A stretch of 64,000 nt of DNA from assembly GCA_900547955.1 (NCBI GenBank), contig URIR01000003.1, positions 11,711 through 75,710 of the forward strand, read 5' to 3'. The translations under genes were made by a program, and so were the position numbers. The notes below the pieces were generated by a model that was given only the letters and a program-made list of their open reading frames with translations, was not told where the DNA came from and made no database searches. Below, in pieces: positions 6,711-49,268 of this stretch. Each line of letters starts with the position of its first letter. The stretch's first letter is position 1. The stretch comes from an uncultured Eubacteriales bacterium (GTDB lineage: Bacteria; Bacillota; Clostridia; Christensenellales; QALW01).

Positions 6711-6739
6711 TTGCCAAGCGCGGATTTTTATTGTAATAT
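6711..6739 (+). promoter_or_regulatory. Candidate sigma-A promoter of the S10 operon
   Basis: TTGCCA (6711-6716), a 17-nt spacer, then TAATAT (6734-6739). This lies about 185 nt upstream of rpsJ. Confidence 0.5.
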
Positions 6740-6923
6740 AAAAAAGCCGCAAAACGCGCCGAATGCGGCAAAACGGTATGAAGCGGGAGGTTGCCGGAAT
6801 AATCCGGGTAATTTCCGCGGACAATTGTCCGATAATCGGACGACAGGCCAAATGGCCGCTTTAAAAATTTAAAAGCGGCACACACGGAAACGTGTATTTG
6901 AGCTTACAAGGAGGTTTATTTTA

Positions 6924-7900: not shown

Positions 7901-8524
7901 ATGCCTAAAGTAGCTGTCTACAATCTCGAAGGCTCGCAGACGGGCGAGCTTACGTTGAGCGATGAGATATTCGCTTCAGATATAAATAAGGCGGTCATAC
8001 ATTCAGTTGTGCGCGCGCAGCTGGCCAATAAGCGCCAGGGCACAAAGAGCACCCTGACCCGCACCGAAGTCCGCGGCGGCGGCAAGAAGCCTTACCGCCA
8101 GAAGGGAACGGGCCGCGCCCGCCAGGGCTCTACGCGCGCTCCCCAGTTCACAAAGGGCGGCGTAGTTTTTGCGCCCAAGCCCCGTTCCTTCAGAATAAAT
8201 GTTCCCAAGAAGGTTAAGCGCCTCGCGCTTAAGGGCGTGCTTACCGATAAGGTGGTAAACGATTCCTTTATAGTGGTTGAGGACCTGAATCTGGCCGCTC
8301 CCAAGACTAAGGAGATGGTTAAGGTGCTGGCTAACCTCAAAATGGAGGGCAAGACCCTTATCGTGCTGAGCGCTCCCGACGAGACGGTTCAGCGCGCCGC
8401 CGGAAATCTTCCCACGGCCGCCGTTACATTGGTAAACACCCTCAACGTGGTGGATATGCTCAAGGCGGATAAGCTGCTCCTTACAAAGGAAGCGGTTGAG
8501 CGGATTGAGGAGGTGTACGCGTAA
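7901..8524 (+). CDS. rplD: 50S ribosomal protein L4
   Basis: 207 aa; uL4 pattern ([19 protein letters not shown]); conserved order. Confidence 0.98.
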
Positions 8525-8820
8525 TGAAATTTTACGAGGATATTATAAGAAAGCCGGTGCTTTCTGAAAAAACCTACGATATGATAGGGGATAAGCGCTA
8601 TGTTTTCATAGTGGACCGGCGCGCCAATAAGGTGGAGATTAAAAAAGCGGTGGAGAGCATTTTCGACGTGCAGGTAGAAAAGGTGAACACCGTTACCACC
8701 ACCGGCAAGATTAAGCGCATGGGCCGCTCGGAGGGCAGAACCCCCACCACCAAAAAGGCCTATGTAATTTTGAAAAAAGATTCCAAGCCCATTGCGTTCT
8801 TTGAAGGCATGGCTGATTAA
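8524..8820 (+). CDS. rplW: 50S ribosomal protein L23
   Basis: 98 aa; TAATG overlap with rplD; uL23 pattern. Confidence 0.97.
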   Translation: MKFYEDIIRKPVLSEKTYDMIGDKRYVFIVDRRANKVEIKKAVESIFDVQVEKVNTVTTTGKIKRMGRSEGRTPTTKKAYVILKKDSKPIAFFEGMAD

Positions 8821-8841
8821 AAGCAGAGGAGGAATAGCAAA

Positions 8842-9672
8842 ATGGCGATTAAGAAGTATAAGCCTACAAGCCCGGCCAGACGTTTTATGTCCGTCTCCGC
8901 TTTTGAGGAGATAACGGCCAAAAGCCCTGAAAGGTCTCTGCTGGGTAATATCAAGAAAAACGGCGGCCGCAATAACGCCGGCCGTATGACCGTGCGCCAT
9001 CAGGGCGGCGGCAACACCCGCAAGTACAGGATTATTGATTTCAAGCGCGCTAAGGACGGCATTCCCGCCCGCGTGGCCAGTATTGAATATGATCCCAACC
9101 GTTCGGCCAACATCGCGCTGCTGGTCTATAGGGACGGCGAGAAAAGATATATTCTTGCGCCCTACGGCCTGAATGTCAACGATACGCTCTATTCGGGTGC
9201 GGACGCTGATATCAAGGTGGGCAACGCGCTGCCCATATCGGCCATCCCTGTGGGTACCTTAATTCACAATATCGAGCTTACGCCTGGTAAAGGCGGCCAG
9301 CTTGTCCGCTCGGCAGGCAACGCCGCGCAGCTTATGGCTAAGGAGGGCGCTTACGCCCAGGTGCGCCTGCCCAGCGGCGAAGTGCGCATGATATCCATGA
9401 ACTGCCGCGCCACTATCGGCCAGGTAGGCAATCTGGATTATGAAAACGTTTCTATCGGCAAGGCGGGCCGCAAGCGCCATATGGGCGTCCGTCCTACCGT
9501 CCGCGGCGTGGTTATGAACCCGTGCGACCATCCTCACGGCGGCGGCGAAGGCAAGTCCCCCATAGGCCGGCCGGGTCCGGTTACCCCGTGGGGCAAGCCC
9601 ACCTTGGGATACAAGACCCGCGCCAAGAAGAACAAGTCGGATAAATACATTATCAAGCGCCGTAACGGCTAA
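8842..9672 (+). CDS. rplB: 50S ribosomal protein L2
   Basis: 276 aa; uL2 pattern ([16 protein letters not shown]). Confidence 0.98.
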
Positions 9673-10381: not shown

Positions 10382-11050
10382 ATGGGTCAGAAAGTTAATC
10401 CTCACGGCGCCAGGGTTGGCGTTATAAAGGGCTGGGACGCCCGTTGGTTTGCTGATAAAAAGGAATTTGCAAACTATATAGCGGAGGACGACAGGCTCCG
10501 CAAGTATCTTAAGAAAAAGCTCTACAGCGTAGGCATATCCAAGATAGAGATTGAGCGCAAGGCCAATTCCACCACCGTTTATCTCTATACCGCAAAGCCG
10601 GGCGCTTTAATAGGCAAGGGCGGCGCTGGAATAGAGGCGCTGCGCAAGGATATCTCCGCCTTTATCGGAAGGCCGGTAAACGTAAACGTTATGGAGATAA
10701 AGAAGCCGGACATAGACGCGCAGCTTGTAGCCGAGAATATAGCGGCTCAGCTTGAAAAGCGCATAAGCTTCCGCCGCGCCATGAAGCAGGCCCTGCAGCG
10801 CGCTGTCAAGGGCGGGGCCAAGGGTATAAAAACTCAGGTTTCGGGCCGTTTGGGCGGAGCTGAAATTGCCCGCAGCGAGGGCTATCATGAGGGCAGCATT
10901 CCCCTTCAGACCCTGAGGGCGGATATAGAATACGGCTTTGCCGAGGCGCACACCACTTACGGGCGCATAGGCGTTAAGGTCTGGGTATATAAGGGCGAAG
11001 TGCTCCCCCAGGTCAAGAAGGACGACAAAGCAGCGGAAGGGGGCAAATAA
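10382..11050 (+). CDS. rpsC: 30S ribosomal protein S3
   Basis: 222 aa; MGQKVNPHG... with KH domain pattern. Confidence 0.98.
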
Positions 11051-11053
11051 GTC

Positions 11054-11494
11054 ATGTTGATGCCTAAAAGAGTTAAGAGACGGCGCGTATTCCGCGGGCG
11101 CATGAAGGGCAAGGCCCAGCGCGGCAATTTCATTGCCTACGGCGAATACGGCATAATGGCGCTGGAGCCCGCCTGGGTTACCAGCAACCAGATAGAAGCG
11201 GCCCGTATAGCTATGACCCGTTACGTCAAGCGTCAGGGCCAGGTATGGACCAAGATATTTCCCGATAAGCCGGTAACGGCTAAGCCGGCCGAGACCCGAA
11301 TGGGAAGCGGTAAGGGCTCGCCCGAATACTGGGTGGCCGTGGTTAAGCCGGGCAGGGTGCTTTTTGAGATGGGAGGCATTCCCGAGGAGTCGGCGCGCGA
11401 GGCGCTGCGCCTGGCCGCTCATAAGCTGCCCCTGAAGGTTAAATTCGTAAAGAAATCAGATTTTGAAACGGAACAGGGTGGTGACGCAGAATGA
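11054..11494 (+). CDS. rplP: 50S ribosomal protein L16
   Basis: 146 aa; [19 protein letters not shown]... matches uL16. Confidence 0.98.
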
Positions 11495-12776: not shown

Positions 12777-13316
12777 ATGGCAAGATTGAAGGATAAATAT
12801 AAGTCCGAGATTGCCGGGGCCATGCAGCAGAAGTTCGGCTATAAGAACATAATGCAGATACCCAAGCTGGATAAAATAGTTATCAATATGGGTCTGGGCA
12901 ACGTTAAGGACGATTCTAAGAAATTTGAAGCCGCCGTTTCCGAGCTTGCGCTTATAGCGGGCCAGAGGCCGTTAATAACCAAGTCCAAGAAGTCGGTTGC
13001 AAATTTCAAGGTGCGCCAGGGCATGAATATAGGCGCAAAGGTTACGCTGCGCGGCGACCGCATGTATGAATTTGCAGATAAGCTGGTTAATATATGTATT
13101 CCCCGCATACGCGATTTCCACGGCGTTTCCCCCAAGGGCTTTGACGGCCGCGGCAATTACGCGCTGGGCATCAAGGAGCAGCTTATATTCCCCGAAATAG
13201 AATATGATAAGATTGACCAGGTAAGAGGCATGGATATAATCTTTGTCACCACGGCAGAGACGGACGAGGAAGCCAAGGAGCTGCTTCGCCTGATGGGCAT
13301 GCCCTTCAGCGCTTAA
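12777..13316 (+). CDS. rplE: 50S ribosomal protein L5
   Basis: The track ORF (12663) is over-extended. ATG at 12777 gives [12 protein letters not shown]..., the canonical uL5 N-terminus (179 aa). Confidence 0.96.
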
Positions 13317-13981: not shown

Positions 13982-14524
13982 ATGTCAAGAATAGGTAAGC
14001 TCCCTGTAATTGTTCCCGCCGGGGTTACCGTAACGGTAGACTCAGAAAATAACGTCACCGTTAAGGGGCCCAAGGGCACTCTTACCGAGAGCATCAGCAA
14101 GGAAATAGAAATTAAGCAGGAGGACGGCCAGATTTTAGTGAGCCGCAAGGGCGATTCAAAGCTTCAGCGCTCCCTGCACGGCCTCTCCAGAACCCTCGTC
14201 AGCAATATGGTGACGGGCGTGACCAACGGCTATGAGAAGGCGCTTGAGATTCAGGGCGTAGGCTACCGCGCCGCTAAGCAGGGCAAGAAACTGGTTCTGA
14301 ACGTAGGGTATTCCCATCCTGTGGAGATTGAGGAGACCGCGGATATTTCAATAGACGTGCCCGCGCAGAACAAGATAGTTATTAAGGGCATCAATAAGCA
14401 GAAGGTCGGACAGTTTGCGGCCGATGTGCGCAATGTGCGCAAGCCCGAGGTATATCATGGCAAGGGTATCCGCTATGAGGGCGAATATGTCCCGCTCAAA
14501 GAGGGAAAGACGGGTAAGAAGTAA
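13982..14524 (+). CDS. rplF: 50S ribosomal protein L6
   Basis: 180 aa; MSRIGKLPV... matches uL6. Confidence 0.98.
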
Positions 14525-14542
14525 GAAAGGAGAGGCAATAGG

Positions 14543-14911
14543 ATGATTAAGAAGAAGGACAAGAATCTTGACCGCCTTGCGCGTCATGCGCGCGTGCGCA
14601 AAAAGATTTCGGGTACGGCCGAGAGGCCCAGGCTGAACGTTTACCGCAGCCTCAATCATATCTATACTCAGGTAATAGACGACGCCGCCGGAAATACTCT
14701 TGCCGCCGCCTCCACCGTTGAGAAGGAGATAGCTTCTCAGGTACAGGATATGACTAAGACTGAGGCCGCGAAGCTTATAGGAAAGATTATCGCCCAGCGC
14801 GCCCAGGAAAAGGGCATCAAGCAGGTTGTTTTTGACAGAGGGGGCTACCTCTATACCGGCCGTGTCGCCGCGGTGGCTGAAAGCGCGCGCGAAGCGGGCC
14901 TGGAGTTCTAA
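14543..14911 (+). CDS. rplR: 50S ribosomal protein L18
   Basis: 122 aa; uL18 pattern. Confidence 0.97.
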
Positions 14912-14929
14912 AAGGAGGATTTTATAAAA

Positions 14930-15433
14930 ATGCAGAATAAGATTGACCCCAAAACGCTTGATTTAAAGGAAAAGCTGGTTTGCATCAACCGCGTCGCCAA
15001 GACGGTTAAGGGCGGCCGCAACATGCGCATGGCCGCGCTGGTGGTAGTAGGCGACGGCAACGGCTATGTAGGCGTGGGCAGCGGTAAGGCTTTGGAAGTG
15101 CCCGAGGCCATACGCAAGGCGACTGAGGACGCCAAGAAAAACCTTATAAAGGTTCCGGTTGTGGGCACCACCATTCCTCACGAAACCATAGGCAAATTCG
15201 GACGGGGCGAAGTGCTGCTTATGCCCGCTCCTGAAGGTACTGGAGTTATTTCGGGCGGAAGCGTGCGCGCGGTGCTCGAATTGGCCGGAGTAAGGGATAT
15301 CCGTACTAAGTGCCTGGGCTCCAATAACCCGGCCAACTGCATAAAGGCGACTTTGGCGGGGCTGGCCTCGCTTAAGACGGCTGAGGAATATGCCCGGCTG
15401 CGCGGCAAGACCACCGAAGAAATACTTGGCTGA
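14930..15433 (+). CDS. rpsE: 30S ribosomal protein S5
   Basis: 167 aa; uS5 pattern ([13 protein letters not shown]). Confidence 0.98.
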
Positions 15434-15532
15434 GAAGCAAAAGAATTTTTTCGGGGATGATGTCCGGCCGCATTCAGGGACGGATATAAATTAGGCGCAG
15501 GGGCGCGTTAGCGCGTGTTTATGGGCGTTCAG

Positions 15533-15700
15533 GTATGCAGGCGGAATGCGGACATGCGAGTATGCGGGCGCTCGAGTATACAGGCAGATATGCGGACATG
15601 AAGGCGGTTCGGGCGTTCGGGTATACAGGCAGGCATGCGGACATGCGAGTATGCGGGCGCTCGAGTATGCAGGCAGGTATGCGGACATGCGGGCGTTCGG
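15533..15700. repeat. GC-rich degenerate tandem repeat inside the rpsE-rpmD spacer
   Basis: Four 36-45 bp units start at 15533, 15576, 15621 and 15665. Each opens with GTAT(G/A)CAGGC(G/A)G..ATGCGGACATG. Units 1 and 3 also share gcgagtatgcgggcgctcga, giving a higher-order repeat of about 88 bp. Confidence 0.85.
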
Positions 15701-15952
15701 ATATGCGAACGCGGATTAGCCGCGGGCCGGGCATAGCGGCGCGAGCTGGCTTTGACCTCTCTTAACGCTAAGATTGCCTGTGGGCCGCGGAATACCAGCG
15801 TCAGGAGGCTGGCAGAATTTTAGACGCCCGGCGGAGCTTTATACGATAAATTATAAAGCGCGGATTATGCGCCTGTATTTGAAACCGTGCCGGCTGCGGG
15901 CCGCCGCGGGCAAAGCGCGGATGCTACTTTCAATAAGGAAAGGTATGATTAT

Positions 15953-16135
15953 ATGAAACTGAAGGTTACCCTTTTAAAGAGCACTATAGGATGCAAGCCC
16001 GATCAGATAGCCACAGTAAAGGCTCTGGGGCTGAAGAAGATTCGCTCCACAGTTGTTAAGGAGGACAATCCGGCTATGCGCGGAATGGTCTTTAAGGTTA
16101 AGCATCTTGTGGGCGTGGAGGAAATAGAGGATTAA
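15953..16135 (+). CDS. rpmD: 50S ribosomal protein L30
   Basis: The track ORF (15887) is over-extended. ATG at 15953 follows AAGGAAAGG and gives [18 protein letters not shown]..., a 60-aa uL30. Confidence 0.95.
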
Positions 16136-16195
16136 ATTTCAGAATCCTCCTAAAAATCTAGGCCCGTAAGGGCGGACAGAAAGGTATGAGATGAA

Positions 16196-16642
16196 ATGAA
16201 GCTTCACGAGTTACAGCCGGCACCCGGCTCAGTTAAGGCTCCCAAGCGTCTGGGCCGCGGCGTAGGCTCCGGCCTGGGCAAGACCTCGGGCAAAGGCCAT
16301 AAGGGACAGAACGCCCGCAGCGGCGGCGGAGTGCGCCCCGGCTTTGAGGGCGGGCAGCATCCGCTGATACGCCGTATCCCCAAGCGCGGCTTTAACAATA
16401 ACTTCAGGAAGGTTTACACCCAGATAAACGTAAGCGCCCTGGAGGGATTTGACAACGGCGCGACCATTACCCCCGAGGTGCTGGTTTCGGCAGGCATAGT
16501 ACGGAAAGTAGAAAAAGATGGCATAAAAATCCTTGGCAACGGCGAGCTTACTAAGAGCCTCACGGTCAAGGCTGCTGGCTTTACCTCCACAGCCCAAGCA
16601 AAAATAGAGGCTAACGGAGGAAAGGCAGAGGTGATTGAATAA
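16196..16642 (+). CDS. rplO: 50S ribosomal protein L15
   Basis: 148 aa; [12 protein letters not shown]... matches uL15. Confidence 0.98.
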
Positions 16643-17955
16643 TGTTTGAGGTACTCAGGAACGCATGGCGGGTTAAGGATTTGCGCAGGAAGCTGCTTTA
16701 TACCATAATGATGCTCCTGCTCTTCAGACTCTGCACCTATATTCCCACGCCCTTTATAGACCAGTCGGTTATAAAGGAGGCTGTGGGCGCCAATTCCGGC
16801 TGGGGCGTTATAGATATAATTACGGGCGGCTCCCTTTCGGGCTATACCTTTATGGCCATGGGCATTACTCCCTATATCAACGCCTCCATTATCCTTCAGC
16901 TGCTGACGGTGGTTATTCCCCGCTTAGAGCAGCTTTCTAAAGAAGGCCCTGAGGGACGTAAAAAAATTACGCAGTACACCCGCTATCTGGGCATCGCCCT
17001 GGCGTTTGTGCAGGCGGTGGGCATATGCATGTCCTTTGGTTCAAGCGCGATTGTCTCTACCTTTAGGGACAATCTGTTCCTGGTTTATGTGATAATCGGC
17101 CTTACCCTGACGGCAGGCTCGGCTCTGGCCATATGGATGGGCGAGCGCATAACTGAAAACGGCATAGGCAACGGCATATCCATGCTTATATTCATAGGCA
17201 TTATCGCCCGCCTGCCCTCGACGGTTATAGCGTATGTTCAGCAGGCGGCCGAGCAGGCGCGCGGCGGCAACGCCGCTCTTTGGTGGATACTGCCCTTCAT
17301 AGTTCTGGGCGTGGCCGCGCTGGTGGTTATCATAGTGCGCGTGGATTTAGGAGAGCGCAGGATACCCGTTCAATATGCAAAGCGCATTTCGGGCCGCAAG
17401 GTATACGGCGGACAGAGCACCTACATACCCATGAAGCCCAACGGCGCCGGCGTGCTGCCTTTGATTTTCGCCATGAGCTTTTTGGCTTTCCCCAACATAA
17501 TTATAAAGATGTTCTGGCCCCATGTGGTGTGGTATGACAACTGGCTGGGCGCGGGCACCCCGCTTTACGCCGTACTGAGCGTAGTACTGGTGCTGTTCTT
17601 CGCCTATTTCTACGCTTCCATATCCTTTAATCCGGAGGATACGGCCAACGACATACAGAAGTACGGCGGATTTATCCAGGGCATACGTCCGGGCAAGCCG
17701 ACCAGCGATTATTTAAAGAAGATAAACCGCAGGCTTACTCTCTTTGCAGGCTTGTTCCTTGCGGGAATAGCCGTGCTGCCCATGATAATAAGCGCGTGCC
17801 TGGGCCGCATGGAGAACAGCGCGCCTATACTTAACCTGGCGCTGACCTTCTCCTCAACCGGCTTATTGATACTTACCAGCGTTTCCATTGAGGTAACCAA
17901 GCAGCTTGAGGCGCAGCTTGTAATGAATCACTACAAGGGATTTTTGGATAAATAA
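16642..17955 (+). CDS. secY: Preprotein translocase subunit SecY
   Basis: 437-aa polytopic membrane protein in the conserved position after rplO; TAATG overlap. Confidence 0.97.
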   Translation: MFEVLRNAWRVKDLRRKLLYTIMMLLLFRLCTYIPTPFIDQSVIKEAVGANSGWGVIDIITGGSLSGYTFMAMGITPYINASIILQLLTVVIPRLEQLSKEGPEGRKKITQYTRYLGIALAFVQAVGICMSFGSSAIVSTFRDNLFLVYVIIGLTLTAGSALAIWMGERITENGIGNGISMLIFIGIIARLPSTVIAYVQQAAEQARGGNAALWWILPFIVLGVAALVVIIVRVDLGERRIPVQYAKRISGRKVYGGQSTYIPMKPNGAGVLPLIFAMSFLAFPNIIIKMFWPHVVWYDNWLGAGTPLYAVLSVVLVLFFAYFYASISFNPEDTANDIQKYGGFIQGIRPGKPTSDYLKKINRRLTLFAGLFLAGIAVLPMIISACLGRMENSAPILNLALTFSSTGLLILTSVSIEVTKQLEAQLVMNHYKGFLDK

Positions 17956-18135
17956 CAGTATTTTTGCTCGAAGAGGGCGCGCATATCCGTGCGATTTGCC
18001 CTCTGCGGGCTTAGACTGTCTATTGGCGCTGTCCCGGCCCATTGCGACGCTGCTGTTTTTTAAAAAGTCATTCTGCCCGCAGGCGGAAATGGCTGCTTAT
18101 GAGGGCCGAATTTAGCAATAACGAAAGGAACGCCT

Positions 18136-19534: not shown

Positions 19535-19828
19535 TTGAAGGAAGAGAATTTTCAGATTGGCCGGCTGGTGCGTTCCCGCCAGGGCCGCGACGCCGGCAGG
19601 TATTTTGTAATAACCGGCCTGCCTGAAGAGAATTACGCATATATTTCGGACGGGGCCGTGCGCAGGCTAAGCGCGCCCAAAAAGAAGAAATTAAAGCACC
19701 TGGAGCTTTGCCCGGAGGAAATACCGGCCGTAAGGGCCAAGCTGGAAGCAGGCAGCAAGGTTTTTGACAGCGAGCTGAAGAGCGCTATAGAAGCTCTGGG
19801 CTTTAATATCAAACAAAAACAGGAGTGA
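19535..19828 (+). CDS. KOW-domain RNA-binding protein
   Basis: 97 aa with a TTG start. It occupies the map-infA slot, as in many Clostridia, and has the [21 protein letters not shown]-like pattern. Confidence 0.8.
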
Positions 19829-20237: not shown

Positions 20238-21243
20238 AGAAGCTTTCCTGTTTGGGAAATTGCTGAGGGAATGCTCGTTTTAACGGCTTAAGGCGGATAA
20301 AACGGCCGGCGGTTTGGGTAGGCTGAGAGATTAGACTGCCGGACGGCAGGCTGAAGGATTAGGCCGCCGGGCGGCAGAGTCAACCCTTCCTATGGGTTTA
20401 AGCCCCGCCGTGCCCAATCGGGCGGGGCGGGATGAGCCAGGCAGAGTTAGGCGAGCGGGCCGGGCTGGGGACTGCGCTTAGGCGCAGGGCTTAAACGGCT
20501 CATACTTAGGCGGCCGCGCTTCTTCGCATGGCGGAAAAGCGTATGGCGCGCTGCTCGGGATTTTGCCTTAACGCGGCTTGGTTTGCCGGTGCGCGGCGGG
20601 TCTGAGCTTAAGCTTTGTTTTCGCCGCAGAAGGATAAAGCTGCGTTTTGCGCTCATGCTAGAGCGCCGGGCTGCCGCGGTCAGCGGATATTCTGCGTTAA
20701 AGCGCTGCGCTGCGATATGGCAGGCCGAGGCTTTGAGTTAATACCCTTTGACGGCTCCGATGAGGCGAAGCATGGGTTTTGGCTAAAGGGCTTTGTTGAC
20801 GCCGATACGGCGGGGTTTGCGCTTTGAGCAAAAGGTTTTGCCGGTCACGGCATGGCGAGGCCCTGCGTTTTGAGTTAATACGCAGCGTTTTGCGGCTTTG
20901 GCGCCGGCGCGCAGGTGCTGAATGAGCGCGGTTGATATGCGTTGAAGCGCCGGATTTAAGTCGTATTTCGGATTGCAGGCGCTTATACGGGCACTTGTTC
21001 TAAGCGTGCCGCAGGGATACGAGCGGTTTAACGAGCTGAGCAAAACCAAGAGCGCCGTTTCGGAATAATGGGCGCTTAAGGCTTGAGCCGGCAGGAGCGG
21101 CCGGCTGGGGTAAAAGGCAGGAAAATTCCCCGGAAACAGAAAATCAGGTCCCCCGCGGGCGCGGCTGAGCGGGTATAATTACCCCTTGCCCGCATAGGGA
21201 TTTTATATATTTTTCTTAAAAAATTTACGGAGGTGGAACCTAA
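20238..21243. repeat. About 1-kb GC-rich degenerate repeat and hairpin block between rpmJ and rpsM
   Basis: I see no credible ORF here. TTA(A/G)G-centred units recur every 30-45 bp. Small perfect hairpins are present (ctgcgc-ttag-gcgcag, agcttaagct, agccggc-aggagcg-gccggct). A decayed cloverleaf lies at 20396-20496. Confidence 0.75.
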
Positions 21244-24269: not shown

Positions 24270-24307
24270 GTAGTAAATAATTATACGCTGTTTCCCGGGC
24301 ATCTGCT

Positions 24308-24509
24308 TTTAGGAGCGCCTAAGCAGTTAAAGGGCCAGGGGGGCGGCGCGCCGCCCGGCCGAGCCAAAGGCTCGGCCGGGCCAGGCGGCCCGCATAATCC
24401 GGGGGCTTTTAGCCCCCGGATTATGCGGGCCGCCTGCTTTTGGCGCCCGTAAGGGCGCCAAAAGGGCGCGCCGCCCCCCTGGCCCTTTAACTGCTTAGGC
24501 GCTCCTAAA
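24308..24509. repeat. GC-rich cloverleaf palindrome (four-way junction), large member
   Basis: Perfect 45-bp outer arms at 24308-24352 and 24465-24509. They enclose three abutting perfect hairpins at 24353-24381, 24382-24436 and 24437-24464, with no unpaired junction nucleotide. Confidence 0.9.
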
Positions 24510-24528
24510 TTTATTTATCAGAATTTAT

Positions 24529-24948
24529 CTATACCCAAAAGAAGCCGGACTGCATGCTGCAGATCTGGCTTTTTCCTGTATTGGGATATAATTTGCGCTT
24601 CCTCTTTTGAAAGCTCTGTCTCCAAAAACGCGTTCCCATATCAGGACGAATATCCAGCAGTTCATTTGGATTCACTTTAAGAACGTTGCAGATAGAAGCG
24701 AGAATGTCTACGTCGGGGCGGTTAAGGCCCTGCTCCCAGTTGGATACGCGCGCATTGCTCACACTAATAAGCTTGGCAAATTTGATACCGTTGCGTATAA
24801 AGCGGGCATATTTCCGGCGGTATTTAAAAAATGCTTGATGGCCGGCGCACGATATATTCGGAGCAGTATAAGGCAATTTGCCAGGCGCTGGGGGTGGGGC
24901 TGAAACATTTTTAAATATTAAATTGGCATAGCCGGCTTCAAAAAGCAA
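24529..24948 (-). CDS. XRE-family helix-turn-helix protein (start uncertain, possibly decayed)
   Basis: The central stretch IKFAKLISVSNARVSNWEQGLNRPDVDILASICNVLKVNPNELL fits the Cro/C1 HTH pattern. The roughly 40-aa N-terminal extension has no recognisable feature. Confidence 0.5.
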   Translation of the reverse strand: MLFEAGYANLIFKNVSAPPPAPGKLPYTAPNISCAGHQAFFKYRRKYARFIRNGIKFAKLISVSNARVSNWEQGLNRPDVDILASICNVLKVNPNELLDIRPDMGTRFWRQSFQKRKRKLYPNTGKSQICSMQSGFFWV

Positions 24949-24975
24949 GCAAACGGATAAAGAATTTCTTGATGA

Positions 24976-26362
24976 GGATTACAGAGCCAGGGCGACCTTG
25001 TCTCTGCCCGCAGCCAAGGAGAAACTGGCGAGCGACATAATGTTTGTATATCCACAAGCGCGGATGTAGAGGAGGTGATGGTTGAAATGCTTTTTAATCT
25101 TAAGGCGCACGCTGAAAATTCGCAGGCCAGCGTTAAGGTCGGCGTCGTTATATTTAATAAGCAGGCTAACGTAACCTGTGTCCTTACCGATATTCAGACG
25201 GGCTATGAGGATATTTTAGAGGGCATCAGGACGGATATAAGCAGCGGCACCAATACTCATGCCGGTATCTTAGCGGGCAAAAAAATGCTGGATGAGGATT
25301 GCGCGGTGCCGGCCAGGCGAAAATATCTGATTTTTATAAGCGATGCGATAACATATATATAACGAAGAGCCTGCTGCTATTCCATCGCAGTTTGCGGAAA
25401 ACGCCGTATTTGCTGGTCCGGACGCATGGGCTAATAAATATCAGAATAATAATCCTCCAAGCGACTGTAATGAATTTTTGACTTCCGTCGGCGTTCAGAT
25501 TGAGGCGGATGGAGATACCTTTGAAGCAAACTACGGAGCAAAGGAGCCGTTTATCCCCTATTCAGAACGCAGCGGGCATGCTATGACGGTAGCTAAGGCG
25601 CTGTATAATACGGCCATGGCTTATAAAAGCGCCCAGGATGCGGGATATACCTGCTATGCCATAACAGCTTCCGCGTCGGCAGCCGCCTCCGAGCAATATT
25701 CATGGGGCCCTTCCTTTATGAATTATCTGGCTCAGGGAGAGAAGGTATCCTTTGACGGAATATACAATGAGGCAATATATCTTTTGGATGCGGGCAGCAG
25801 GGTTATTGACGTAATAGGCAGCGGGTAAGGCCAGTATAGGGACGGAGAGCTTATTGATAAGGGATATAATTTTGTAAACAGTCCGGAGACGCTGGAATTG
25901 AAGGTAGGGGAAGATAAATACGCGCTGACCCGGCTGGAGAATAAGGTATATGCCTTTGGAGAGGAGAACGGACAAAATCAATATCCCTTCATACTGCGTT
26001 ATTATCCCGAGGGGACTGCCTCAGAGCCGCGCGAGCATTTAGTTTGGGAAATTAACGCGCCGGTGGATATAACCAGACGGGCGAGCCTTACATATACTGT
26101 GGAGCTTGCCGACCCGCAGTCTGAGGCAGGGCTGTACACGCAGCTTTATACCAATGAGGAGGCAATTATATATCCTGTGGATACATGCGGCAGCGAAGGC
26201 GAGGGAGAATATTTTGAAAGACTTGCGGCAGCTTACAGAATTTTGCCTATGGAGGAGGAGCACCCGACGGGAGACGCCGGAGTTCTTCTGCTATGCTGCA
26301 TATTGGGCGTATGCGTCTCAGCCGTAATTTTGCTTAAAGTCTTAAAGGTCAGAAACGAATAG
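24976..26362 (+). pseudogene. Remnant of a vWA-domain, sortase-anchored surface protein
   Basis: Three ORF fragments (25075-25362, 25478-25828, 25898-26362) read through as one protein if two lesions are repaired. One is a frameshift at the (AT)4A tract at 25353-25361; the other is an in-frame TAA at 25826-25828. vWA motifs are present (SGTNTHAGI, LIFISDA). The C-terminus is HPTGD followed by a TM segment and a basic tail. The signal peptide and the DxSxS motif are missing. Confidence 0.75.
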
Positions 26363-26459
26363 AGGCCGGGGAGCAATTAGAAAACATTTAGTGCAGGAAA
26401 AACTCCTGGTCAGGGCGGGCCGCACGGCTATACTCCTGGATAAAGGCTGACGCTGCCAG

Positions 26460-26501
26460 AATAATGGACCGTCCATAATAGGATGGTCCATTATTTTTTT
26501 T
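26460..26501 (+). terminator. Intrinsic terminator after the vWA remnant
   Basis: Stem aataatggacc / ggtccattatt followed by a T-run. Confidence 0.65.
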
Positions 26502-26509
26502 GCGCCGGC

Positions 26510-26996
26510 GGAACCGTTCCGAGAGACTGATGAAATTGTACTGAGCTGGAAAAAGAGAAGAAAAGGGAAGCGGAACGTGAGAAAAATTTGTCTAGTATAT
26601 GAACAATTATAAGCATACTATATTTGGATATAACCATTTATTCCCTGTAAAAACCTGTGTAAAAAATCGTGAAAAGCAATAAAATTTAAAAAAAATCAGA
26701 AAAAAACGCAAAAATCTATTGCTTATCCACAGGTTTTTTGGTATCATTTATATTGCCGTCAGCGATTAGAGTAGCGCGGCGGCGATTTATAGTTCGGAGC
26801 TTAAAATGCTTTAAAAATATGCAAATCGCCCTTATATGGGCGTTTTTAGCCATTTAGGCCAATGAATAAATCTAGGGATTGTGCCTTATTTTAATAGGTC
26901 ATACACCATATAGAGTTATCAACAGCCTGTGGAAAAGTTTTGGACTATAAATTGTACTTTTTACTCGGTTAATATTTTTCTGGGGGTTGTTGAAGC
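26510..26996. promoter_or_regulatory. oriC-like AT-rich spacer with DnaA boxes upstream of dnaA
   Basis: One perfect DnaA box TTATCCACA at 26723-26731. TTATCAACA at 26916-26924 faces TGTGGAAAA at 26928-26936 (complement TTTTCCACA). Long A/T tracts lie around 26660-26715. Confidence 0.6.
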
Positions 26997-28322
26997 ATGC
27001 AGGATGCAAGTGAAATCTGGGCAAAGGTATCCGCCGTATTAAAAGAGACAAAGGAGATATCCAGCTTGGCCTATACTACCTGGCTTGCGTCTATAAAGCC
27101 GGCGCTTTTTCGGAACGACTGCCTATATCTGGTAGTACCCTCGGCGCTGCACCGAAATCATATTGTAGGAAACAGCAATTATAAAATATATATCAATACT
27201 GCGCTTAATATGGTCACGGGCAAGGAATGCTCTGTTGAGCTGCTGCTGGAGGGAGAAGTCAAGGATGTTATGCAGAGCGCCGTCCAGCCCAATAAATGGC
27301 CTATGCTCAACGACAAATATACCTTTGAAACCTTTGTTATAGGTCCCAGCAATCAGTTTGCCCAGGCGGCGGCTTTAAGCGTAGCCGAAGCGCCTGCTAC
27401 GCAGAATAACCCGCTTTTTATATACGGCGGCGTAGGGCTGGGCAAGACCCATTTAATGCATGCTATAGGCAACTATGTTTTGGAGCAGAATCCGGCTGTG
27501 CGCGTTTTATATACCACCTGTGAGAAATATACAAACGAATATATAGATTCCATACCTAAGAACCGGGTTGCAGCCTTTAGAGAGCATTACAGGAACAACG
27601 TGGATATTCTAATGATAGACGATATCCAGTTCCTCACCCGCAAGGAGCGTATTCAGGAGGAATTTTTCCATAATATTAACGAATTAGTATCGGCGAACAA
27701 GCAGATAATTATAACCAGCGACCGGCCGCCGCGGGATATAGCCACGCTGGAGGATAGGCTGCGCTCCCGCTTTGAGGGCGGATTGATAGTGGATATAACG
27801 CCGCCTGATTTGGAGACAAGAGTTGCTATTCTGCGCCTTAAGGCCGAGGCCTTTGGGGCGGTATTGGATAACGAGCTGCTGTTTTACATAGCCGAGCGGG
27901 CAAGCGACAACGTGCGCGAATTGGAAGGCTCTCTTAAGCGGGTTATAGCTTATTCCAGCATAATGGGGCAGGATATAACCTTTGAGCTGGTTTCGGAGGC
28001 TTTAAAGGACTATAACGCCGTACAGCAGCGCACCTTGACCGTGGATAAAATCATGGAGACGGTAGCGGAGTATTACGGCGTGGAGGTAGAGGAATTGGTG
28101 GGCAAAAAAAGAGACGCGGCTATAGTTATGCCCAGGCATATAGCTATGTATCTCTGCCGTGAGCATACCGACCTGTCTTTTCCCCGCATAGGAGACGAAT
28201 TTGGGGGCCGGGACCATTCTACCGTTATAAACGGCATAGGCAAGATACATCAGGCGCTTAAGACGGACCCTAAGGTAAAAACCTATGTGGAGGACATAGA
28301 GCGCCGGCTTCAAGGGGTTTAA
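26997..28322 (+). CDS. dnaA: Chromosomal replication initiator protein DnaA
   Basis: 441 aa; AAA+ Walker A GGVGLGKTHL; C-terminal DNA-binding domain DHSTVINGIGKI. Confidence 0.98.
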   Translation: MQDASEIWAKVSAVLKETKEISSLAYTTWLASIKPALFRNDCLYLVVPSALHRNHIVGNSNYKIYINTALNMVTGKECSVELLLEGEVKDVMQSAVQPNKWPMLNDKYTFETFVIGPSNQFAQAAALSVAEAPATQNNPLFIYGGVGLGKTHLMHAIGNYVLEQNPAVRVLYTTCEKYTNEYIDSIPKNRVAAFREHYRNNVDILMIDDIQFLTRKERIQEEFFHNINELVSANKQIIITSDRPPRDIATLEDRLRSRFEGGLIVDITPPDLETRVAILRLKAEAFGAVLDNELLFYIAERASDNVRELEGSLKRVIAYSSIMGQDITFELVSEALKDYNAVQQRTLTVDKIMETVAEYYGVEVEELVGKKRDAAIVMPRHIAMYLCREHTDLSFPRIGDEFGGRDHSTVINGIGKIHQALKTDPKVKTYVEDIERRLQGV

Positions 28323-29123: not shown

Positions 29124-30605
29124 ATGAAAAATAAGCTTTTAGGTCTGCTGCTCTGCGGCTTGCTGTGCATAGGGCTGTTTCCGGCGCAGGTATTCGCCGC
29201 GGGCGTAAATGAGGGAATTATTGTAAACGGAGTGGATATTACTACGGCTCAGGATTATACCGTAGTTTGCGGTGAAGGCAAAGCTGTATATAATCCGCAG
29301 GAGCAGAAGCTGACGCTGGACAACGCGGAAATCACGGTAGGAGCGAAGGCGAGTTCTACTGCCGGCGAGCGTTACGGCGTCGCTATACAGGGCGGGATAA
29401 CTGGTACAGTCGAGGTTGTTTTGAATGGAAAAAACAGCATTATCCTGTCTGATACGCAATACAAAAATATGGGAATATGGGCGGCAGGCTCCAGCCTTAA
29501 GTTTTCAGGCGGGGGAAGCCTGGAGGTATCTCTTTATAATGATTCATTTCCCTCTATAATACAGGGCAGGAATCTGGAATTTGAAAAAGTAGATATTACC
29601 GGCAGGCTTTTGAACGAAGAAAGCCCTTGCGGTTATGCTGTCCGGACGACTGGTACGGTAATAAGCAATCAGTCCGCTTTTGAGATTACCGGCTTTGAGA
29701 CAGCGATTGATACCGGCTCGCTTGCTATGAGGAACGGCAGCAGCCTAAATGTTAAAACTTCTGCAGAATACGGAATGGGGGTATTTTCCGGGGATATACT
29801 TGTTGAAGATTCGCAGATGGAACTTCAGGTTCCGGATACCGGACTTTACTGCCTGGCTGGTAATTTGACAGTCAGCCGGAGCAGTATTGTTTGCTCGCAG
29901 GCGAACGTTGGTATGTATGCCGAAGAAGGGATAATAACGGTCAAAGAAGATTCCATGCTGAATTTAAATAACAAAATTTATGGCCTGCGAATTTATAACG
30001 GCAGTTTATCCATTAGCGGCGGCGTAATTCATGCGTCAGGCAGCAGAGGAGGAATCCAGGTTCTGAATGTGAAGGAGGATGAAACAGACACGCCGACTGT
30101 AGCTATCTTTATGGCGCCTGATTGGGCGGAAAAGGCCGGCGGAAAAGCCGCCGCGGCAGAGTGCTTGTATGACGACGGATATGACGAGCCGTATCCTGTT
30201 TTTATTACAACCTTTATTTCTGCAGAAGACAGTATACTGAATGAGGATTTAAGCAACGCGGTTACGTCAGTACAAATCCAAATCAAGGGCGCCGACTACA
30301 GCAGGGTGGAAGAAATGATAGAAAAGGCAAAGGCCCTGAATAAAGACGAATACAAGGATTTTTCAAAGGTGGAAGCGGCGATAGACGCCGTTATATATGG
30401 CAAGAATATTAAGGAGCAGGGCTTGGTAGACGATATGGCGGAGGCGATTGAGGATGCCATATCCTCGTTGGAAAAGAAGCTGGATACTGATATTCCGCAG
30501 ACGGGAGATAACGGTATGATAATTTGGATTGCTGTTATGCTCGCGGCAGGCGCAGGATTGTCCGGGACGGTAATCTGCGGCAGAAAGATAAAACGCAGCA
30601 GATAA
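29124..30605 (+). CDS. Secreted cell-surface protein with C-terminal sorting signal (IPQTGD + TM + basic tail)
   Basis: 493 aa; signal peptide MKNKLLGLLLCGLLCIGLFPAQVFA; repetitive beta-rich body; a helical ADYSRVEEMIEKAKALNKDEYKDF module; sortase-type C-terminus. Confidence 0.85.
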   Translation: MKNKLLGLLLCGLLCIGLFPAQVFAAGVNEGIIVNGVDITTAQDYTVVCGEGKAVYNPQEQKLTLDNAEITVGAKASSTAGERYGVAIQGGITGTVEVVLNGKNSIILSDTQYKNMGIWAAGSSLKFSGGGSLEVSLYNDSFPSIIQGRNLEFEKVDITGRLLNEESPCGYAVRTTGTVISNQSAFEITGFETAIDTGSLAMRNGSSLNVKTSAEYGMGVFSGDILVEDSQMELQVPDTGLYCLAGNLTVSRSSIVCSQANVGMYAEEGIITVKEDSMLNLNNKIYGLRIYNGSLSISGGVIHASGSRGGIQVLNVKEDETDTPTVAIFMAPDWAEKAGGKAAAAECLYDDGYDEPYPVFITTFISAEDSILNEDLSNAVTSVQIQIKGADYSRVEEMIEKAKALNKDEYKDFSKVEAAIDAVIYGKNIKEQGLVDDMAEAIEDAISSLEKKLDTDIPQTGDNGMIIWIAVMLAAGAGLSGTVICGRKIKRSR

Positions 30606-43294: not shown

Positions 43295-43543
43295 CGGTTT
43301 AAACGGGCGCGGCTATACGCATAATTTTCTAAGCGGTAAAGCCTGAACGGCCGGCTGGAGACGCGGCTTTTTGAGCGGTTAAAGCCTGAACGGCCCGCTG
43401 GAGATGCTGTTTCCTGAGCGCGGATTTTTAAACGGCCGGCCGGGGCGCTGCTTTTTTGAGCGGGGAAAGCCTGAACGGCCGGACGCAAGGCTGTTTTTTG
43501 CATGCGGACGCTTAAGGCGGCCCGGCCGCCTGCGGCTGAATGC
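43295..43543. repeat. GC-rich tandem repeat with a 42-43 bp period
   Basis: Units start at 43330, 43373, 43416, 43458 and 43500. Units 1, 2 and 4 read ...gcgg(t)(t)aaagcctgaacggccgg...; units 1-4 end in a T-run (e.g. gctttttt). Unit 3 and especially unit 5 are more divergent. Confidence 0.85.
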
Positions 43544-45303: not shown

Positions 45304-46851
45304 ATGAAAAGATTTTTCGCTTATGCTGCGGCTTTTGCGCTTATGCTCAGCTTTGCTTCATGCGCTTCTTCAAGCGGACCTTCGCCGTCGGCTGAGGGGC
45401 TTAATGCTTTTAGCCCGTCTGCGGCGGCGGATTATAATTTGCCCCAAAATGGCGAAACGGCGGGAAACACTTTTGCCGCGGGCACTCTGCCTATAGGCAG
45501 TACGGCCGGCGGCGGAGCAGCGGCGGACGCCTCTGCCTCGGTTCAGCCTACCGGGACCGCTTATGCTTCTACGCCCACGCCTACGCCTACACCTGCGCCT
45601 ACGCCTACACCTACACCTACACCTACACCTACACCTGCGCCCACGCTTACGCCTGCTCCGCAGCCCTCTAAGACTACTGAACCTACGCTTTCGCCGCGGC
45701 CGACCGCTTCATATACGTCCGAGCCGACCACTACGCCCGTGAACGTCCCGATACCTACGGCGGTTATCGGCGAGCCCAAGGAGCATTATGACGATATCCA
45801 GGGGGTAAACGGCAAAAATAATGCAAGCAACTACAGATTGGCGTTTGTCAGCCTTCAAATAATAAATGCGGACAATTATATTTATTTTGTGGGCGGCGAG
45901 CCTCGGAACCAAATGGTTCCGTACGGCACTTACCGTCTGGATACCAGGACGGATAAGCTGGAATTTTTCAGCGGGGAACAGATGAATGAAATGTTTATAG
46001 CGGGCGAATGGCTGTATTATGAGATATATGATTCGGAAACTGATAGTTATTACAGCTACCGCATGCATTCGGACGGCACATGCCAGACCAGGCTCTCCTA
46101 TCTTATGCCTGACGTCTTCTGCTGCCTGGACGAATATCTTTATTATATAGAGGAGGGCAGCCTTTACCGCAGGCTTATATCGGGCGAGGATGAGCCCGTG
46201 CTTGCGCGAGAACCTGAACAGGACGAGGAGTTCAGCAGTATCTGCACGGACGGACAGAATTTATATATAGTAAGCGACAGCGCGGACGGCTCGCGCATAT
46301 ATAAGCAGAGCGGCTCGGAGAGCAAGATTCTTTGGACGGGGGATAATATTGGCGCTATAGTATATGACAGCGGCTATATATGGGGCGAGTCTCATTGGGA
46401 AGAGAATAAAGCGTATATTTTATTAAGGATAGACGCCGAAACAGGGGAAGAGGAATACACAGGCTTATGCGAGGATTACTCTAAGAGCAGATATTTCAAT
46501 ATAATTGATGGAACGCTGTACATTTTTGGCGATAGTTACGGCTTGCGTAATCTTGTAAGCATGGATATTAATTTTGAAAATAAGACAGAACTGGGTTATT
46601 TGACAACGGCGGGCAACATAAACGGTATAAACAGCGCTAGTTTCTGCGTTATCGGGGACTATTTCTGCTTTAAGGGGCCGGTTGGCAAGGGAGTGTATGA
46701 AAGCGTCGTGCTCTTTAAAAACGACGGCAGCAATAAATATATGGTAATAGATACGGATTTTCCCGACCCCGACGGGGAAGTCCCCAGCCGAGATTATCCT
46801 ATTATGGCATGGATGAAGGATGATTGGATGGACGAATATACAAGGCCGTAG
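45304..46851 (+). CDS. Lipoprotein with Pro/Thr-rich linker and beta-propeller-like (DUF5050-type) C-terminal region
   Basis: 515 aa; lipobox LSFASC; a (TP)n linker encoded at about 45571-45660; repeated YIYF/LYYI-type strands. Confidence 0.8.
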
Positions 46852-48118: not shown

Positions 48119-48143
48119 TAAATGCTTTAGGCAATAGTATTTT

Positions 48144-48179
48144 AAAGCCCCGGGAGGTTATAGCCGCCCGGGGCTTTTT
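48144..48179 (+). terminator. Intrinsic terminator after rpsR
   Basis: 11-bp stem aaagccccggg / cccggggcttt followed by a T-run. Confidence 0.8.
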
Positions 48180-48474
48180 ATTATATGATTGGCATTCCCT
48201 GCAAGCGCTGGTATGCTTTAAAAAGCGTCAATTTCGGACGGCAGCCGAGGGCGGGGCCTTGCTGGATTGCGGAAGGGACTTTAGAGCGGGCTGGCGTTGG
48301 CATATTTGCAATGGGGCGGAATATTTGTATTTGCGGACTGTATCAGCCGGTATGGCCGGATAGCCATATGGGCGGAATGAGAAGGTGCTTTTGATTGGCC
48401 GGGCTTTGAGCGGTTGAGCTTGGTTATCAAGCGGCCGTATGAGCGAAACGAGCGGGGGCAGAGACGGCAGGGCT

Positions 48475-48670
48475 GGCTGAGCGAGCTGGGATTACGAGGG
48501 AAACCAGCAGGGGCGGCTAAGCGAGCTGGGATTATGAGGGGAAACAGCAGGGCCGGCGGGGCGAGCTGGGATTATTGGGGAGAAAGGGCAAGGCCTGCAC
48601 GGCAGGTTGGGATTATAGTGAAGAAACAGCAGGACTGGCAGGGCGGGTATCGGATTAGGGGAGCAGGGGC
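48475..48670. repeat. GC-rich tandem repeat with a period of about 40 bp
   Basis: Units at 48475, 48515, 48555 and 48601, plus a decayed fifth. They share the core gctgggatta(c/t)..gg.gaaa..agcagg. Confidence 0.85.
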
Positions 48671-48789
48671 GGCGGGGCGCATAGAGGCGGAGACGGCGGG
48701 CTTAGCGCAGCGGTCGGACGGGCTGGGCGTGAAATGATTTTTTTGCGGTTAAAGCCGGGCTGGTAAAATGGCGGCGCAAAGAGAGAAAG

Positions 48790-48985
48790 TGCGGTATTTT
48801 GATGCGGCGAGGGGGACTTAAAGCACCCCTCTCTCCCCTCTCCCACCCTTTCTTTTTTTACTGCCCTTTTGCGCCCGAAAGCCCTGCGGCTGAGGCATTT
48901 TCCCCTGCAGACGCAGGAGAATCTGCAAACCAATATTTGCATATTATACCAAATAGCTTGTTCCTGTATTTTGATATCCATAGCC
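48790..48985 (-). repeat. Repeat family 3 unit (about 190 bp), inverted relative to the 51665-52035 copies
   Basis: The reverse complement aligns with 51851-52035. Both start with (g)gtatcaaaatacaggaa and end with a polypurine gggagag... block followed by gcatcaaaat(a/c)ccg. Confidence 0.7.
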
Positions 48986-49206
48986 TTTAGCATATAAGGC
49001 GCAGCGCCCTTTTTGCCGCCGAATTTGCTCTTATTGCCGTATTTCTCTTGCTGCGTTTTAGCGATAGGGCAGTTCGGGCGCTCTGCATGGGCGGAATTTA
49101 CTCTTTTGGCCTCTGAGACCTTTTTATATACTGCGGCTTTTCTTCAAAATATCCATTATTTTAACGGGCGGTGAGCAGTAATTTGTCTTTTATATACTCT
49201 CTTATC

Positions 49207-49235
49207 TTGACTTTATTACGTTATTGTGATAAAAT
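49207..49235 (+). promoter_or_regulatory. Candidate sigma-A promoter of the ABC transporter operon
   Basis: TTGACT (49207-49212), a 17-nt spacer, then TAAAAT (49230-49235). Confidence 0.55.
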
Positions 49236-49268
49236 TTCAGTCACTTAATAAGATAAAGGAGAGTTGTT

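Follow-up and report, generated by a model that had tools for sequence, protein, structure and literature searches.

A strain-variable tandem-repeat array, probably grown in place, in the rpsE-rpmD spacer of the ribosomal-protein cluster of an uncultured human-gut Clostridia species

The window analysed here, that is, the whole stretch of 64,000 nucleotides, carries on its + strand the standard Firmicutes S10-spc-alpha ribosomal cluster, including the rpsE and rpmD genes. The upstream gene, rpsE (14930-15433, + strand), was called as an ORF and encodes ribosomal protein S5 of 167 aa, the Pfam domains Ribosomal_S5 and S5_C being found on an identical protein. The downstream gene, rpmD (15953-16135, + strand), starts with ATG at 15953 and encodes ribosomal protein L30 of 60 aa, with Pfam Ribosomal_L30 found likewise on an identical protein. 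With rpsE ending at 15433 and rpmD beginning at 15953, the two genes are separated by a non-coding intercistronic spacer of 519 bp (15434-15952, + strand), exactly the distance claimed in a sequence-only reading of this DNA. The 5' segment of the spacer (15434-15475) consists of a T-run and a small GC hairpin-like motif, and can be partly aligned to the 75-bp spacer of a congener, L093. The stretch 15523-15700 is a degenerate tandem array, or VNTR, built of 44-bp units that combine into an 89-bp higher-order repeat and show an 8-bp sub-periodicity. The array is followed by a GC-rich, non-tandem part (15701-15918), in agreement with the earlier remark that more GC-rich sequence follows it; this part has weak short direct repeats (three CGCGGATTAGCCGC-like copies and two copies of AAAGCGCGGAT), is species-specific and shows neutral-like diversity. 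The 3' end of the spacer (15919-15952) is the sole block common to four congeners. It harbours the Shine-Dalgarno (SD) site of rpmD, AAGGAAAGG (15935-15943), and, beside rpmD, an anti-SD hairpin formed by CUUUC (15927-15931) and GAAAG (15938-15942), which is present in the MFE folds.

The GC content was 0.615-0.63 over 15500-15799, as compared to about 0.52-0.58 in the flanking genes, and GC skew in the spacer reached +0.35. The sense strand of the spacer contained 35% G as compared to 21% C, with 58% purine, and the bias was found in the array as well (42% G, 20% C and 62% purine). When %C-%G was computed for successive lengths of 78 nt along the sense strand of the spacer, it was negative in all of them, ranging from -4 to -24.

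Tandem Repeats Finder reported the array with a period of 44 (15533-15691, 3.6 copies, 78% matches) and with a period of 89 (15523-15700, 2.0 copies, 90% matches, score 289), and a repeat search gave unit spacings of 43, 45, 44 and 36 bp. Both levels of the degenerate array that had been proposed, units of 36-45 bp and a higher-order repeat of about 88 bp, were thus recovered, the higher-order period being 89 bp. The motif said to be shared by the units was also recovered. The pattern GTATRCAGGCNGNNATGCGGACATG matched exactly at three positions of the + strand (copy 2, 15576-15600; copy 3, 15621-15645; copy 4, 15665-15689), as compared to 0.00 matches expected in shuffles, and copy 1 (GTATGCAGGCGGAATGCGGACATG, 15533-15556, + strand) is one base shorter than the other copies and includes a ATGCGGACATG match at 15546-15556. 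Autocorrelation of the array showed peaks at lags of 8 (z 7.6), 16 (z 6.4), 44 (z 4.9) and 89 (z 8.0); in view of the peaks at 8 and 16, the array reads as strings of ATGCGGRC-like octamers. Only three inverted repeats were found in the spacer, all short (10-13 nt) and internal; none was terminal, and no target duplication was seen. A CRISPR array was considered and rejected, since the segments between the motifs themselves repeat (CGAGTATGCGGGCGCTCGA twice), giving the 89-bp higher-order unit, and there are no unique spacers of the CRISPR kind.

The rpsE-rpmD spacer was present in seven other independent metagenome assemblies of the window's species, one of them a noisy long-read-like contig, and is therefore not an assembly artefact. 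The species was found by exact-protein look-up in many gut metagenome assemblies, including a sample from a 2-month-old infant, and the index of the assembly collection lists the identical S5 protein for 561 blocks. We obtained eight distinct alleles of the spacer, of 430, 474, 519 (two), 520 (the noisy contig), 527 and 528 (two) bp. Alignment revealed that the 430-bp allele (L001) is short of exactly one 89-bp higher-order unit and that the 474-bp allele (L088) is short of 45 bp, while in the 527- and 528-bp alleles the array differs at its 5' edge by a 9-bp insertion and several substitutions. In all the strain alleles the sequence was near-identical in the flanks and in the 3' half of the spacer. 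This is classic VNTR behaviour: the locus has the head-to-tail units of about 10-100 bp and the whole-unit differences between strains, with conserved flanks, by which a VNTR or minisatellite is defined. Another contig of the collection, L006, starts about 309 bp upstream of rpmD, within the array, as would be expected if the assembly had broken at the repeat.

The S5-L30 junction had been described as normally tight. When species-representative GTDB genomes were scanned with the S5 protein, the spacer was about 0-31 bp in 80 out of 80 relatives among the matches listed (63-81% S5 identity), in line with that description. The window's species and its congeners lie outside this set and were reached by a protein search and exact-protein contig look-ups. 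The protein search revealed S5 variants at 84-96% identity, the contigs of which form a graded series of spacers. In L096, with an S5 protein 85% identical, the S5-L30 spacer is 17 bp. For the closer contigs, nucleotide identity of the flanks to the window was measured over two blocks, rplE-rpsE and rpmD-secY, respectively. The spacer is 75 bp in L093 (GCA_964323645.1; 88% and 82% identity), 190 bp in L094 (89.5% and 85%) and 524 bp, with a different array, in L101 and L103 (91% and 89%). Thus, in four congeneric species the junction measures 75, 190, 524 and 430-528 bp, the last being the window's species. The array in the L101 spacer is made up of 37-bp units (3.3 copies) and 18-bp units (3.3 copies), and a 68-bp array of two copies is present between secY and adk in L101 and L103. 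The 75- and 190-bp spacers of L093 and L094 had no significant periodicity. In pairwise comparison of the spacers of the four congeners, similarity was confined to the last 25-45 nt or so adjoining rpmD, and the 25-nt motif of the window was absent from the congeners, whose junctions hold unrelated sequence. The comparison of the junction across related genomes, proposed along with the earlier reading, showed that a long non-repetitive spacer is not routine here, and that the sole similarly long congener (524 bp, L101) is also repetitive, with a different sequence. Taken together, the graded series of spacers and the limitation of similarity to the nucleotides next to rpmD argue for a junction that loosened in the ancestor of the genus and that each species then filled with its own sequence.

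On either strand, the ORFs that overlie the array are repetitive, and they had been dismissed as not credible, a judgement our data support. ORFs of 57-76 aa do cover the array on both strands, and a 60-aa ORF (15774-15956) ends in an ATGA overlap with the start codon of rpmD, as might be expected if the repeat encoded a small repetitive protein. However, the alleles differ by 44, 45, 89 and 9 bp, not consistently by multiples of 3, and these differences break the frames between strains; the ORFs have no Shine-Dalgarno sites and are absent from the congeners, the sister species being without the sequence. None of the five longest spacer ORFs gave a Pfam match. The ATGA overlap is forced, since rpmD begins with ATG AAA. 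A protein product is therefore extremely unlikely. The mini-ORF reading MII-stop and the 60-aa ORF overlapping the rpmD start were also considered as MIRU-like coupling devices and rejected, as they have no SD site and are not conserved.

The S10-spc-alpha cluster of Bacillus subtilis is generally described as one long transcription unit. In the window, an S10-Clostridia leader at 6770-6843, which was the sole gathering-level Rfam match in the window, lies near a promoter-like site at 6711-6739, and a terminator with a 20-bp stem follows rplQ at 24386-24432. Leader and terminator bracket the cluster, an arrangement consistent with one long transcription unit. We scanned 14800-16300 for sigma-70-type consensus promoters and found no sigma-70-like promoter on the + strand; the spacers of the congeners also had no + strand promoter-like site. 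Three terminator-like sites were found, as compared to 2.0 expected in shuffles, and none was convincing. The sequence-only reading had left two alternatives, that the spacer is transcribed through or that the downstream genes are re-promoted. Of these, read-through appears to be favoured, because there is no + strand promoter and no convincing terminator, the sense strand is richer in G than in C, and just the SD region of rpmD is conserved. The other alternative would have upstream transcription end inside the spacer, and an internal promoter missed by the consensus scan restart rpmD-rplO-secY. The 519-nt untranslated gap is long enough for both signals, and it contains a weak hairpin with a T-rich tail (15858-15872), followed by CTGTATTTGA, as well as an A/T-rich patch (15838-15858). 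Against this, the scan gave no + strand -35/-10 match, terminator-like matches were at chance level, no promoter is conserved among the congeners, where the SD region alone is shared, and G>C composition disfavours termination by Rho. We consider such a split of the operon unlikely.

The relevance of composition comes from Bacillus subtilis, where RNA polymerase outruns ribosomes (Dierksheide et al. 2026, PMC13323073) and where Rho terminates just on stretches of more than 150 nt that are C>G and T-rich (PMC13323073). By this rule, an untranslated stretch rich in G would be no more exposed to Rho than a gene is, and termination would be expected on its C-rich antisense instead. The sense strand of the spacer is G>C throughout its length, which is the composition that escapes Rho of Bacillus subtilis. 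That work, however, deals with coding sequences in Bacillus subtilis, and both Rho and runaway transcription are only presumed for the organism of the window. Heavy transcription of unconstrained DNA might equally have left the G>C skew as its mutational signature. On the read-through reading, the spacer would be carried passively in the long S10-spc-alpha transcript, without a promoter or terminator of its own, and its G>C sense strand would presumably leave Rho without a loading site. For rpmD and the genes that follow, translation would depend on the conserved SD site of rpmD itself and not on coupling to S5; independent initiation at L30 is suggested by the fact that the region with the SD site and anti-SD hairpin (15919-15952) is the sole block conserved across the genus.

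We also considered an RNA function of the spacer, as a small RNA or as a structured cis-regulatory element, for example a ribosomal-protein-binding leader for L30/L15, or an antisense RNA. The antisense candidate would run on the - strand from a promoter-like site at 15977-15948 to a hairpin at 15874-15856. The site, TTAAAA-18-TATAAT, scores 10/12 and recurs in the congeners, and the terminator-like hairpin lies about 75-95 nt downstream of it. However, the site is built from the start and SD sequence of rpmD, so its conservation is explained by coding, and the hairpin region is not conserved in the congeners, where nothing outside the SD region could be aligned. A C-rich antisense RNA would, moreover, suit Rho as a target. 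With E up to 10, Rfam had no match anywhere in 14000-18000, and a search of the whole window at the gathering threshold placed none in the spacer; the spacer does not match a known ribosomal-protein leader. Folding gave no significant z-score on the + strand (-1.56), on the - strand (-0.94) or in the 3' half (-0.12). An RNA element of this kind is thus very unlikely.

In the spacer, nucleotide diversity (pi) among seven strains was 0.0066 for the 5' part (87 bp) and 0.0120 for the 3' part (253 bp); it was 0.0087 at 1466 fourfold-degenerate sites of 16 flanking genes. Segregating sites made up 2.4% of the spacer as compared to 2.2% of the fourfold-degenerate sites, a comparison of low power as it involves just 8 sites in 340 bp. 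Within that power, the unique parts of the spacer vary like neutral sequence, and the spacer would appear to be selectively neutral.

The rpsE-rpmD spacer had been singled out as unusual. It is indeed unusual but it is not singular, since the congeners (75, 190 and 524 bp) and other junctions of this genome are also inflated. The rpmJ-rpsM spacer is 1005 bp in the window and 971-981 bp in other strains, as compared to 198-199 bp in L096 and L093 (198 bp in L096), the secY-adk spacer is 180 bp in the window as compared to 10 bp in L096, and a crude gene map of the window has many gaps of 0.4-1.9 kb. The spacer is, therefore, one instance of a clade-wide inflation of spacers. Other arrays are present too. 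A second one (43338-43528, periods 43 and 85 bp) lies between glnA and a GtrII-family gene and ends 34 bp before the latter; its strain alleles are 443, 511, 528, 530 and 531 bp, one of them being without a single 85-bp unit. GCA_964325985.1, with an identical GlnA protein and the same neighbouring genes, appears to be of the same species as the window. The third array (48460-48645) is made up of 4.6 copies of a 40-bp unit. Thus, three arrays in 64 kb share a period of 40-44 bp and 80-89 bp, with units that are unrelated in sequence. When the consensus unit of the spacer array was aligned cyclically with those of other arrays (B43, C40 and D28 in the window, E37 and F68 in L101), no similarity was found.

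Two observations may be recorded with regard to these periods. A shared period of 40-44 and 80-89 bp is not what simple slippage predicts, and might instead reflect a specific mechanism or a bound protein. The spacing of the 25-nt motif, about 44 bp or about four helical turns, would also suit an array of binding sites.

Accordingly, a regulatory role of the array had to be weighed. The array could be a tunable element, consisting either of protein-binding sites or of a length-variable spacer, the copy number of which would, as in a contingency locus, adjust how rpmD-rplO-secY-adk are transcribed or translated. Four motif copies of 24-25 nt at 43-45-bp spacing would all face the same side of the helix, strains differ in copy number, arrays of similar period occur upstream of other genes (43338-43528 and 48460-48645), and an independent setting of L30 translation is suggested by the conserved anti-SD hairpin at rpmD. 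However, the motif is absent from the congeners, which have unrelated sequence at the same place; the units of the different arrays share no sequence, so they provide no common binding site; diversity is neutral-like; and the stoichiometry of ribosomal proteins is an unlikely target of phase variation. A tunable element is, on balance, rather unlikely. A broader proposal would be that the genus has a specific process, either mutational or acting through selection via a bound protein, which repeatedly builds G-rich arrays in transcribed spacers, including those of a core ribosomal-protein operon, with a preferred period of about 40-45 bp and its double of 80-89 bp, and that the arrays serve as length-variable modulators of downstream expression. 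We keep this proposal, improbable as we consider it, because the three unrelated arrays share their period and the two arrays for which strain alleles were compared are both polymorphic in copy number.

How the spacer arose is the remaining part of the interpretation. The junction had been said to be split by an insertion of a GC-rich repeat. The enlargement of the junction is real; "insertion", on the other hand, is probably the wrong word, as the evidence favours growth in place, namely the 8/44/89-bp hierarchy, the likeness of the 3' end of the array to a sister spacer, and the lack of another copy, of terminal inverted repeats and of a target duplication. The hierarchy is the expected product of successive rounds of local duplication. 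With regard to the sister spacer, a motif of the 75-bp spacer of L093, TTCGGCAGATATGCCGGATAAGCCG, resembles the 3' end of the array, TTCGGATATGCGAACGCGGATTAGCCG (15693-15722), with p of about 0.03 against shuffles, and the first 40 nt or so of the window's spacer (TTTTTCGG-GGATGATGTCCGG) align locally with TTTTTCGGCAGATATGCCGG of the L093 spacer, with p of about 0.02 against shuffles. This likeness weakly suggests that the array was seeded in place.

If the spacer had begun as inserted foreign DNA (for example a MITE, templated filler DNA, or the remnant of an IS or intron) that decayed and was afterwards duplicated in part, its sudden appearance in one genus and its GC content above that of the neighbouring genes would be accounted for. 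Yet the spacer has neither terminal inverted repeats nor a target duplication, and a sensitive blastn search did not find a second copy of it in the 64-kb window. A metagenome scan with the repeat motif returned just two single chance matches, both inside a coding gene of an unrelated organism, and carries little information in itself. The content of the junction differs in each congener, and the 8-bp sub-periodicity together with the likeness to the short spacer of the sister species favours a local origin. We therefore regard a foreign insertion as highly improbable.

We propose, instead, that the spacer is a non-coding minisatellite grown in place, a neutral filler that is transcribed through with the operon; judged from the sequence comparisons given above, this is probably the correct reading. 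In the proposed course of events, the S5-L30 junction of the genus's ancestor would have widened from about 17 bp to a length of a few tens of bases. Repeated duplication of short motifs in this spacer, presumably by replication slippage or unequal recombination, would then have turned an octamer-like seed into 44-bp units and these into 89-bp double units, giving the G-rich array. Older duplications beside the array would have decayed since, and the array itself would continue to gain and lose whole units between strains.

Few gene boundaries in bacteria are as conserved as the S5-L30 junction, and the genus of the window is an exception. A genus with a loosened and independently refilled junction (75-528 bp) indicates that tight spacing and translational coupling are dispensable there, at least in this Clostridia lineage. 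The spacer could serve as a natural test of Rho avoidance, that is, of whether untranslated operon RNA is tolerated under runaway transcription if its composition avoids Rho. For strain typing of this species, which is common in the human gut but uncultured, the array and its sibling at 43338-43528 are markers ready for use, and, as illustrated by contig L006, such an array can be a cause of assembly breaks. None of the findings points to a new molecular system. The spacer is most probably harmless filler and would be of use mainly for marking strains.

Among known repeat classes, the small, GC-rich, non-coding repeats of the REP/BIME, ERIC and MITE types can also sit between the genes of an operon and be co-transcribed (PMC3184786), and the spacer array resembles them in being small GC-rich non-coding repeats between genes of one operon. 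Those elements, however, are dispersed in many copies, each a palindrome or bounded by terminal inverted repeats (PMC3184786), whereas the spacer array is composed of direct repeats, without significant extra folding (z -1.56) and without another copy in the window. MIRU (Supply et al. 1997) are closer. In the accounts given in PMC3184786 and PMC12548453, MIRU are described as tandem units of 40-100 bp that are intercistronic, co-transcribed with the operon and polymorphic in copy number, and as being tolerated because downstream expression is maintained. The same accounts describe a dispersed and possibly mobile family of about 40-50 loci with a common consensus, the ORFs of which overlap the flanking stop and start codons so that translation stays coupled. 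Set against that description, the spacer array is likewise intercistronic (rpsE-rpmD, in the S10-spc-alpha cluster), variable in copy number and tolerated, and is likely to be co-transcribed. In contrast to MIRU so described, its unit is locus-specific in the sequence available (the 64-kb window, the other arrays and the metagenome scan), its unit lengths are not multiples of three, stops occur in all frames with no ORF spanning it, and rpmD relies on its own SD site.

The best likeness is to the bacterial VNTRs of the MLVA type, with which the spacer array shares head-to-tail degenerate units of tens of bp, conserved flanks and change of copy number by whole units (430, 474 and 519 bp), as well as, presumably, growth by slippage or unequal recombination. 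It differs from them in its place inside the core spc operon, at the almost universally tight S5-L30 junction, in its three-level 8/44/89-bp hierarchy, and in the unrelated arrays that congeners have built at the same junction.

The 1005 bp spacer between rpmJ and rpsM (20239-21243) is a bigger instance of the spacer inflation seen between rpsE and rpmD. Its length was 971-981 bp in other strains of the species, as against only 198-199 bp in the sister species represented by contigs L096 and L093. The spacer carries more G than C, has direct repeats inside, and showed an autocorrelation peak at 45 bp. None of the assemblies compared had a gene call within it, and the window sequence of the spacer had no Rfam match. 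In the closest congener (contig L101), the S5-L30 spacer (524 bp; 8505-9028 of that contig) harbours its own arrays of 37 bp (3.3 copies) and 18 bp (3.3 copies) units, and two copies of a 68 bp unit are present between secY and adk (11028-11324); the sense strand of both regions is rich in T and G.

Two more arrays are present in the window. The second degenerate tandem array (43338-43528), with 43 bp units and a higher-order repeat of 85 bp, lies in the spacer between the divergent glnA and GtrII-family genes. We found alleles of 443, 511, 528, 530 and 531 bp for this spacer among strains, thereby showing that the array is polymorphic in copy number; one strain allele lacks a single 85 bp unit. 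The third array (48460-48645), comprising 4.6 copies of a 40 bp unit with a 9/18 bp sub-periodicity, is located within a 1150 bp gap (48119-49268), upstream of a solute-binding-protein gene. No sequence relationship links the window's three arrays, of which one is that between rpsE and rpmD (15523-15700), yet a period of 40-44/80-89 bp is common to all. A short hexamer repeat, CTACGC in 14 copies (45569-45654), was also observed within a 515 aa ORF (45304-46851), where it reads in frame as a Thr-Pro linker.

A promoter-like site (6711-6739) immediately precedes a ribosomal-protein leader of the S10-Clostridia family (RF03136, 40 bits; 6770-6843), and a very strong terminator with a 20 bp stem (24386-24432) is located 3' of rplQ; the roughly 17.7 kb bracketed by these elements may be transcribed as one unit. 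The top-scoring promoter-like site of the cluster (TTGACC-16-TATAAT, 11/12; 13213-13240) precedes rpsN and falls within the 3' end of rplE. A 97 aa ORF between map and infA (19535-19828), which has no Pfam match, is conserved in all the strains and congeners.

The dnaA gene (26997-28322) is directly downstream of rplQ. The region between them (24270-26996) contains about 1.9 kb of extra DNA in the window strain, harbouring a minus-strand HTH_3 repressor-like ORF (24529-24948) and a VWA-domain fragment (25075-25362), along with two unknown ORFs; the gap is about 800 bp in other strains. The sequence at 26363-26996 is AT-rich (GC 0.38) and could represent the oriC region. Downstream of dnaA, a 493 aa ORF (29124-30605) without a Pfam match is present in the window strain and in the strain represented by contig L088; four other strains lack it at this position.

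At the 3' end of the rpsE-rpmD spacer, a small hairpin, CUUUC-AAUAAG-GAAAG (15927-15942), pairs with part of the Shine-Dalgarno site of rpmD. It is absent from L096, the relative with an 85% identical S5 protein and a tight S5-L30 junction. Across four congeners the pyrimidine arm reads CUUUC, CUUCC or UUUCC, and complementarity to GGAAAGG is kept throughout.
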